64,000 bases of DNA from an uncultured Erysipelotrichaceae bacterium (GTDB lineage Bacteria > Bacillota_I > Bacilli_A > RFN20 > CAG-826), in the NCBI GenBank assembly GCA_902777015.1, contig CACYSA010000006.1, positions 33,502 to 97,501 of the forward strand, in the 5' to 3' direction. The translations under genes were made by a program, and so were the position numbers. Every line of letters starts with the position of its first letter. Positions within the stretch are counted from its first letter, which is position 1. Shown here piece by piece: positions 33,910 to 35,620 of this stretch. The notes beneath the pieces were generated by a model, which worked only from the letters and a program-made list of their open reading frames with translations, did no database searches and was not told the origin of the DNA.

Positions 33910-34248
33910 ATTTAAAGGATAACATCTTATTACATATATGTCATTATAAATTCACAGAATTTAATCAATGATATAATATCACTATAATTGTCCGGATAAG
34001 GCAAGAAAAAAGGACTGATATTTTGTATCAATCCTATTTAATCAAGTTGGCAAGGTTTCAGTGTTTTGATACACATGGAACAAAGCAGAAACCCGTGGAA
34101 CAGACTGCCACTTTGACTTATTAATATAAAGACTTAATGAATCGAGATTATAGTCATTGTTTGAAATTTAGCACTAGCAAAGAAGAAGGCCACGCCATCT
34201 ATAATCGCACCTTAGAATTATCAAATAAAAAACTAATCTAAAGATTGA

Positions 34249-34509
34249 TTAGAGTTTGAAGGAACATCTACAGTCTTGACATTTACAGAATCTACCATTA
34301 CCAGTGCTAAAGTATGTGTAGTTTTTGCTACCACAGTTAGGGCACTTATCACTGGAACAAACACCACCACCACTGATGACTTCTAATTGTTCATCAGTTA
34401 ATTCAACGCCTTCTTGCTTTGCAAGATTGAGTAGCTCATCATGGTTTTTGCACTCTCTTAATTTGGCAATCTGTTCGTCAGTTAAGCCTTTTAATAATTC
34501 TTCTTTCAT
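34249..34509 (-). CDS. Leader-peptide-type precursor: Nif11-like leader, double-glycine cleavage site, Cys-rich core
   Basis: From the internal Met (RBS AAAGGAGA): MKEELLKGLTDEQIAKLRECKNHDELLNLAKQEGVELTDEQLEVISGG, then core GVCSSDKCPNCGSKNYTYFSTGNGRFCKCQDCRCSFKL (7 Cys). Confidence 0.5.
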   Translation of the reverse strand: MKEELLKGLTDEQIAKLRECKNHDELLNLAKQEGVELTDEQLEVISGGGVCSSDKCPNCGSKNYTYFSTGNGRFCKCQDCRCSFKL

Positions 34510-34663
34510 TATCAAAGTTCTCCTTTGTTGCTTGTATGTTAACATGGTAGTTGTCACAGAAGTGCCACAAAAGAAAAAGGATTGATTAATCAATCCTACA
34601 TTTTCTAAGTTGGCCTAAATGGGCAGAAATGATACAATTGAACACTTCTCAAAAAGCCGAACG

Positions 34664-35308
34664 CTATTTCTTTAATAGCTTTTTAAGCTCTTTTTTGCTT
34701 TGGTCTATATCCCCAGTAAGTAATGGGATTAGTTTTTTAATTTCTTCAATATCTTTGTCCCACCACTTGAGTTCCAAAAGAAGATCAATTGTTTCTTTAT
34801 CAAATCTATATTTCTTAACAACTGCGGGATTACCTACGACAACCGCATAAGGAGGAACGTCTTTTGCCACAACCGCATTAGCGCCAATAACTGCACCGTC
34901 GCCAATATGGACTCCTGGAAGAATTGTGGCATTTTGTCCAATCCAAACATCATTACCTACGACTGTATCTCCACGGTTGCCTCTATCTCCAAATGATCTA
35001 GATAGACCTTTGAATTCGTCAATGATTTCAAAAGGATAAGTTGTTAAACAATCTAACATATGATTAGCGCCATTCATGACAAATTCCACGCCTCTTGCAA
35101 TAGCAACAAACTTGCCTATGATAAGTTTATCGCCCATAAAATCGTAATGATGAGTAACGTGTTTTTCAAACGATTCTGGACCATCTTCGCTATCATCATA
35201 ATATGAATAATCACCCACAATAATGTTTGGTCTAGTGATTACGCTTTTGATATAGCAAAAGGTTTTAAATTGTGCATTTGGGTAAATTGGTTTCATTTCT
35301 TTTTTCAT
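34664..35308 (-). CDS. Hexapeptide-repeat xenobiotic acetyltransferase (Vat/streptogramin-A acetyltransferase-like)
   Basis: Left-handed beta-helix hexapeptide repeats ([31 protein letters not shown]) with an N-terminal Vat-like region (VGDYSYY...). Confidence 0.6.
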
Positions 35309-35620
35309 AACAGTATGATAGCAAAAAAATAAAAGGACTGACACTTTGTATCAATTCTATTTAACTAAGTTGGGTTTGGCTAACAGGAAATATGCCTACT
35401 TTTTGAAAAACCTAACAGGAAAAATGCCTATCCAGTAGATACTATTTAAGCAATTTAACCATGTTATTGCTTTTCAAGAGCCTCCCTAAGCCCCTATAAA
35501 AGTATAATACAAATCTCTTCTTTTAGAAAAGTGAGTCCTAAGTTTCTGGAAAATGAAATGGATGTTCCTTCATGTCTTTTAACATCCCTTTAACTAGATA
35601 GTTTTTCAACAGCCCCTTTT

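Follow-up and report, generated by a model that had tools for sequence, protein, structure and literature searches.

An orphan precursor gene of a large, probably Nif11-type double-glycine family of rumen Bacilli, with a zinc-ribbon-like core

The 86-codon gene described here, located in a window of 64,000 nucleotides (the whole stretch of DNA that was analysed), probably codes for an orphan precursor within a large family of Nif11-type double-glycine peptides from rumen Bacilli. Its product was found to combine a strongly conserved leader, ending in Gly-Gly, with a cysteine-rich core of zinc-ribbon-like pattern, and it belongs to a large and undescribed family of rumen-bacterial precursors that are predicted to be secreted; a literature search returned no description of such a family. 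The gene and its surroundings comprise the following features.

34227–34252, minus strand: weak, putative terminator-like hairpin 3' of the precursor stop, CTAATC-N8-GATTAG followed by TTTTTT (read from the sequence)
34249–34509, minus strand: precursor gene, 86 amino acids plus stop (open reading frame list and sequence, 311 homologues, leader HMM)
34252–34365, minus strand: core, residues 49–86, 38 amino acids (cysteine pattern, Pfam matches of relatives, AF2, Foldseek)
34366–34509, minus strand: Nif11-like helical leader, residues 1–48, ending in I45-S46-G47-G48 (HMM, AF2, family alignment)
34518–34526, minus strand: ribosome-binding site AAAGGAGAA, with GGAG 10 nt 5' of the ATG (from the sequence)
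34536–34544, minus strand: extended -10-like element TGtTAACAT, fitting the family consensus TgTGaTAa.AT (from the sequence; putative function)
34551–34569, minus strand: family-specific box of promoter/operator type, made up of the direct repeats TGTGGCAC and TGTGACAA (period 11 bp), at about -40 to -22
34570–34597, minus strand: intrinsic terminator downstream of the Vat gene, hairpin AGGATTGATTAATCAATCCT with a T-run (terminator scan)
34664–35344, minus strand: Vat-type hexapeptide-repeat acetyltransferase, 257 bits on NF000311 (cut-off 300), likely start at 35308

The precursor reading frame extends on the minus strand from an ATG at 34509 to a TAA stop at 34251–34249, and its translation consists of the leader MKEELLKGLTDEQIAKLRECKNHDELLNLAKQEGVELTDEQLEVISGG followed by the core GVCSSDKCPNCGSKNYTYFSTGNGRFCKCQDCRCSFKL. 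It is a real gene with a strong ribosome-binding site, kept in the upstream consensus of the precursor family, and with its own promoter; it scored 100 bits on the leader HMM. A longer form of 114 amino acids with a TTG start was rejected, because the homologues begin at the same MKEELL as the 86-residue form. The hairpin behind the stop codon fell under the G+C requirement of the terminator scan. Since more than 300 homologues keep the full architecture of the precursor and the family box is unique in the window, the gene exceeds what chance would produce.

A total of 311 homologues of the window precursor were recovered at E ≤ 0.01, and the family was found to comprise at least 468 clusters (50% identity, E ≤ 1e-10) from metagenome-assembled genomes (MAGs) of rumen Bacilli and Erysipelotrichaceae; the rumen MAGs hold no fewer than 298 genomic copies. 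A set of 37 assemblies contained at least 257 different copies, the richest assembly carried at least 18, and paralogue arrays reached up to 15 copies within 20 kb. The cores fall into 71 clusters. Pairwise identity within the family was 72% for the leaders, whereas the cores reached 21%. The core subtype of the window is rare, being present only in L010 among the fetched loci and in three close protein matches (P0001–P0003), and the 64-kb window holds a single precursor copy. The genes adjoining the precursors are heterogeneous across loci (Vat, GNAT, KilA-N, ParE-GNAT and EamA), and the majority of family loci lie distant from any maturation/export module. No family members were found in plasmid and phage collections, and no immunity gene was recognisable among the neighbours of the window gene or within the arrays.

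The leader was evaluated against curated models and against the family alignment. A first-pass annotation of this DNA had proposed that the gene encodes a precursor of leader-peptide type, in which a Nif11-like leader closes with a double-glycine processing site. The Nif11 models suggested as its check are not reached by the window protein itself, which scored 18.4 bits on PF07862 (gathering cut-off 23.8) and 13.8 bits on TIGR03798 (cut-off 32.3) and attained no curated family cut-off in the HMM searches; several relatives were likewise under the curated Nif11 cut-off. The proposal holds at the level of the family, in which 39 of 45 relatives matched both PF07862 and TIGR03798 (E ≤ 0.01, best about 1e-6) and in which an exporter and a radical-SAM enzyme adjoin relatives. 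Some relatives carry a precomputed PF07862 match, and NCBI lists one under the name 'Nif11 family protein'. The double-glycine site, G47-G48 in the window precursor, was recovered at the leader end in all 240 aligned leaders, and a Gly-Gly at the HMM-aligned position closes the leader in 282 of 293 reading frames. The preceding hydrophobic positions agree equally well: the window leader has I45 at -4, L42 at -7 and L37 at -12, and the family has Val or Ile at -4, Leu at -7 in 225 of 240 leaders and Leu at -12 in 239 of 240. AF2 predicted four leader helices (residues 5–8, 11–18, 23–33 and 39–45), with low confidence at residues 48–51.

The core contains seven Cys in 38 residues, as first noted, at positions 51, 56, 59, 75, 77, 80 and 82. 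It begins with a Cys51-Ser-Ser motif, and two knuckles follow, C56-P-N-C59-G and C77-Q-D-C80, with extra Cys at 75 and 82. Across the family no variation was seen at C56, C59 or C80, and the conservation of C77 reached at least 90%; the pattern CxxC-(8–30)-CxxC was found in 235 of 251 unique cores and CPxC in 214 of them. Many zinc-ribbon Pfam models were matched by the cores of relatives. In the AF2 model of the precursor, which is moderately confident (pLDDT 67), three strands were placed at residues 64–85, and the best Foldseek matches of this model were zinc ribbons superposing over about 32 residues at 1–2 Å rmsd, with non-significant values (E > 0.1). Taken from sequence patterns and prediction, the family cores thus appear to be CPxCG...CxxC zinc-ribbon-like domains, which would be unusual among leader-peptide families. 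A zinc-ribbon match had been named at the outset as an observation that would speak against a precursor; such a match was indeed found for the core, and it is read here as a property of the cargo, so that the precursor assignment stands.

A maturation/export module was identified in loci of relatives, in the order HipA-fold kinase, short precursor, radical-SAM/SPASM enzyme, small HlyD-like protein, C39-peptidase ABC transporter and second ABC subunit. It is present, whole or in part, in L009, L033, L059, L056, L025 and L023, the last two of which end inside the module, and it was recovered again in many metagenome loci by an independent scan seeded with the radical-SAM protein. The exporter matched TIGR03796 along its entire length with 828.5 bits, just below the equivalog cut-off of 853.3, and its QxxxxECG, GHFVV and NDP motifs are intact; the second ABC subunit downstream of it is devoid of a peptidase domain, and the HlyD-like partner, of about 128 amino acids, covers just the first ~50 positions of TIGR03794. 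The kinase partner (397 amino acids) was assigned a HipA-like fold by profile search and structure model. It conserves DxHxxN and the Mg-binding Asp, shares about 13% identity with HipA, under the Pfam HipA_C cut-off, and gave no match in a single-sequence search of the PDB; among the module loci that were read, none had a HipB-like antitoxin gene annotated next to the kinase. The partnership of a HipA-fold kinase with a radical-SAM/SPASM enzyme is an unreported combination. The first-pass annotation had noticed that LanM, LanB, a radical-SAM maturase and a peptidase-containing ABC transporter are lacking next to the gene. For LanM, LanB, SPASM radical-SAM and C39-peptidase ABC genes this is true of the whole 64-kb window, which holds no homologue of the exporter, the SPASM enzyme or the kinase; its sole radical-SAM protein, at 929–2200, is a methylthiotransferase of UPF0004 type. 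The species with the nearest orthologue (98% nucleotide identity) appears to have the module, as judged via a 99.7%-identical contig. Because most family loci are far from the module, it is the common leader and promoter, and not adjacency, that tie the precursors to it.

The constant presence of the radical-SAM/SPASM enzyme in the module, and its resemblance to the peptide maturases PapB, WgkB, StsB and AlbA, raise the alternative of a thioether-crosslinked peptide of sactipeptide/ranthipeptide type, in which the Cys would be donors of C-S bridges and the CxxC pairs would not be metal ligands. The match to the radical-SAM core starts at residues 89–95 of the enzyme, and the ~90 residues before it could be a leader-binding domain. 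A Cys lies within the first four core residues in 237 of 240 cores, and the whole 48-residue leader is conserved, well beyond the roughly 15 residues needed by a C39 peptidase. The alternative is nevertheless considered unlikely. In their CPxCG...CxxC spacing, predicted sheet of three strands and matches to many zinc-ribbon HMMs, the cores resemble a metal-binding fold more than they do known sactipeptide or ranthipeptide cores, and none of the curated precursor models of these two groups was matched above its cut-off. Moreover, the radical-SAM gene is usually located directly 3' of a short precursor with a single Cys, a basic tail and no zinc ribbon, which looks like a dedicated substrate; because of this arrangement, the long cores may leave the cell unmodified.

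The promoter box, with the layout TGTGGCAC-N3-TGTGACAA, was matched exactly once in the 64-kb window, 59 nt upstream of the precursor ATG, and in none of 100 shuffles. In related loci (1.18 Mb) 149 matches were found, and for 130 of them a precursor ATG follows at a distance of 54–66 nt, with a mode of 59. Of 31 matches in metagenome loci collected independently, 27 stand in front of a precursor, the kinase gene or the gene of the radical-SAM enzyme. Further matches are located upstream of the kinase and exporter genes. The offset of the extended -10-like element from the box is fixed across the family, and the layout of a terminator followed by the box is repeated at many paralogues. A sigma-54 reading of TGGCAC-N5-TGAC was rejected, as the -12 is not TTGC and a direct repeat is followed by an extended -10. 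LytTR sites have a repeat period of about 21 bp, and a LytTR-type site was judged unlikely because the repeats of the box have a period of 11 bp.

In L007, L008, L009 and L026 the box is followed by a precursor gene and, immediately after it, by the genes of a LytS-type histidine kinase and a response regulator. This arrangement suggests an auto-induction loop and would be consistent with an exported pheromone, sensed by a two-component system belonging to the family, rather than an antimicrobial. The C-terminal half of the response regulator matched only the SARP protein EmbR in the PDB, at a non-significant E of 0.39. The best NCBIfam match of the window precursor is peptide pheromone VP1, although its score of 18.8 bits is far short of the cut-off of 85. 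Genes of secreted lipases and of further proteins with Sec signals also have the box in front of them, so that the regulon extends beyond a toxin locus. A purely signalling role is still regarded as quite unlikely: dozens of divergent cores per genome, in 71 clusters, fit diversifying antagonism better, the short Cys-plus-basic-tail peptides beside the radical-SAM gene are better pheromone candidates, and the subtype of the window core is rare.

It appears very unlikely that the product is a small cytoplasmic zinc-ribbon protein with a Nif11-like helical domain, which would stay uncleaved inside the cell and might, for example, act in regulation or bind nucleic acids. In its favour, proteins with zinc ribbons, which the core resembles, are typically intracellular, the exporter is distant from most copies and absent from the window, and the leader holds a Cys, C20, that is invariant in the family and would be unusual in a disposable leader. 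Set against this are the invariance of the Gly-Gly and of the -4/-7/-12 pattern, the extreme divergence of the presumed functional domain behind a fixed leader, the paralogue arrays, the short members that share the leader and lack the ribbon, and the NHLP-type peptidase exporter that is co-located with relatives under the same promoter.

The neighbours of the gene had been correctly recognised in the first-pass annotation as a Vat-type acetyltransferase, a 121-residue basic reading frame and a membrane XRE protein, and an unusual cluster of these had been envisaged. A local biosynthetic cluster of Vat, the basic reading frame, XRE and a GT-acyltransferase was rejected here. No counterparts of XRE, the basic reading frame, the GT-acyltransferase or a 448-residue protein were present in any related locus; only Vat recurs, and it lacks the family promoter box and is separated by its terminator, which probably insulates the precursor unit with its own promoter. 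Vat adjoins precursors in L010, L036 and L045, representing two independent contexts, and is regarded as a recurrent neighbour. Rfam contained no family for the GC-rich repeats adjoining the precursor gene. Compared with L010, Vat is 90.7% identical in amino acids and the precursor 98% identical in nucleotides, whereas the flanking genes are 35–79% identical in amino acids. This 1.3-kb segment of Vat and precursor, situated in a variable region near tRNA-Glu, might be taken, together with the solitary copy and the missing partners, for a transferred fragment carrying a stranded, non-functional relic, but that is highly improbable given the intact reading frame, ribosome-binding site, box and -10 at canonical spacing, the mere two amino-acid changes from the L010 copy and the fact that orphan copies with the family promoter are the rule in the family.

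The family was compared with known systems. Among the closest are the precursors with Nif11-like leaders (TIGR03798/PF07862; Haft, Basu and Mitchell 2010), such as the prochlorosin ProcA peptides of marine cyanobacteria. Shared with these are a long helical Nif11-related leader with terminal Gly-Gly, many paralogues per genome with conserved leader and hypervariable core, the distance of many precursors from a single set of processing genes and an export by an NHLP/Nif11-type peptidase ABC transporter, seen here in the loci of relatives. The present family differs in its hosts (rumen Bacilli/Erysipelotrichaceae), in its zinc-ribbon-like cores instead of lanthipeptide or azole substrates and in its radical-SAM/SPASM and HipA-fold kinase partners in place of LanM or a cyclodehydratase. 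The NHLP/Nif11 export system (TIGR03794, TIGR03796 and TIGR03797) is paralleled by the TIGR03796-type exporter and peptidase-less second ABC subunit of relatives; unlike it, the relatives' exporter scores just short of the equivalog cut-off, the HlyD-like partner is short and none of the system's genes occurs in the window.

Class II double-glycine peptides (ComC/ComA, lactococcin G/LagD) are exported by C39-peptidase ABC transporters and have leaders of 15–30 amino acids. Gly-Gly at -2/-1, hydrophobic residues at -4, -7 and -12 and, in some loci, linkage to a two-component system are common to both, and several class II leader models were weakly matched by the window precursor. The 48-residue leader is outside the class II range, the Cys-rich zinc-ribbon-like core differs from an amphipathic or hydrophobic helix, and an adjacent immunity gene was not recognised. 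With the sactipeptides, ranthipeptides and SCIFF the family shares Cys-rich cores, a SPASM radical-SAM enzyme in the module and possibly a quorum-like regulation; the zinc-ribbon Cys pattern, the lack of a precursor model match and the pairing of the radical-SAM enzyme with a single-Cys precursor set it apart from sactipeptides and ranthipeptides. Intracellular zinc ribbons (eIF2-beta C-terminus, RPB9/RPC10, TFIIB/Brf and ZifS) likewise have two CxxC knuckles, the first being CPxCG, and the three-stranded sheet of the predicted core model superposes on them. Here, in contrast, the ribbon is cargo behind a predicted cleavable export leader, and the family cores contain one to three extra Cys and diverge fast among paralogues. 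The kinase partner resembles the HipA/CtkA Ser/Thr kinases in its catalytic residues and differs from them in that its gene shares an operon with those of a precursor, the radical-SAM enzyme and the peptide exporter.

In the mechanism proposed for the secreted precursor, the gene would form its own transcription unit under an activator-dependent promoter, in which the two 8-bp direct repeats, with their 11-bp period, would stand in for a -35 element next to the extended -10, and one promoter type would serve the whole family and the maturation/export operon. The helical leader would hold the peptide inactive and present it to enzymes whose genes presumably lie at other sites of the genome. An ABC exporter of NHLP/Nif11 type would then cleave after Gly48 with its C39 peptidase domain and secrete the 38-residue core as a putatively metal-binding, CPxCG...CxxC zinc-ribbon-like mini-domain. 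The conserved N-terminal Cys-Ser/Thr motif in front of this domain would be the most likely target of the radical-SAM/SPASM enzyme and the HipA-fold kinase. The most likely role of the product would be an intercellular one, either that of a diversified toxin resembling bacteriocins or that of a signal. A tentative extension of this proposal, perhaps somewhat short of an even chance, is that the family represents an undescribed class of ribosomal natural products, in which a folded zinc-ribbon cargo is tailored, exported and coregulated through the box, amounting to dozens of 'zinc-ribbon bacteriocins' per cell. The hosts under this extension are uncultured rumen Firmicutes and, more distantly, human-gut Firmicutes.

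The family genes are currently annotated as 'hypothetical', and cluster-based RiPP miners would miss them because most copies have no enzyme nearby. The shared box provides a handle for finding members of the regulon in any genome and illustrates how orphan precursors dispersed over a genome can be linked to a processing locus far away. Leader-peptide systems are usually seen as delivering short unstructured cores that are shaped only by enzymatic crosslinks; hundreds of cores in this family, judging by their Cys patterns, appear to share a mini-domain scaffold of metal-binding type. We know of no cultured producer in the rumen ecosystem. If secreted, these peptides would be bacteriocins or signals of a new type and would make up a natural diversified library of zinc-stabilised rumen scaffolds of about 40 residues.

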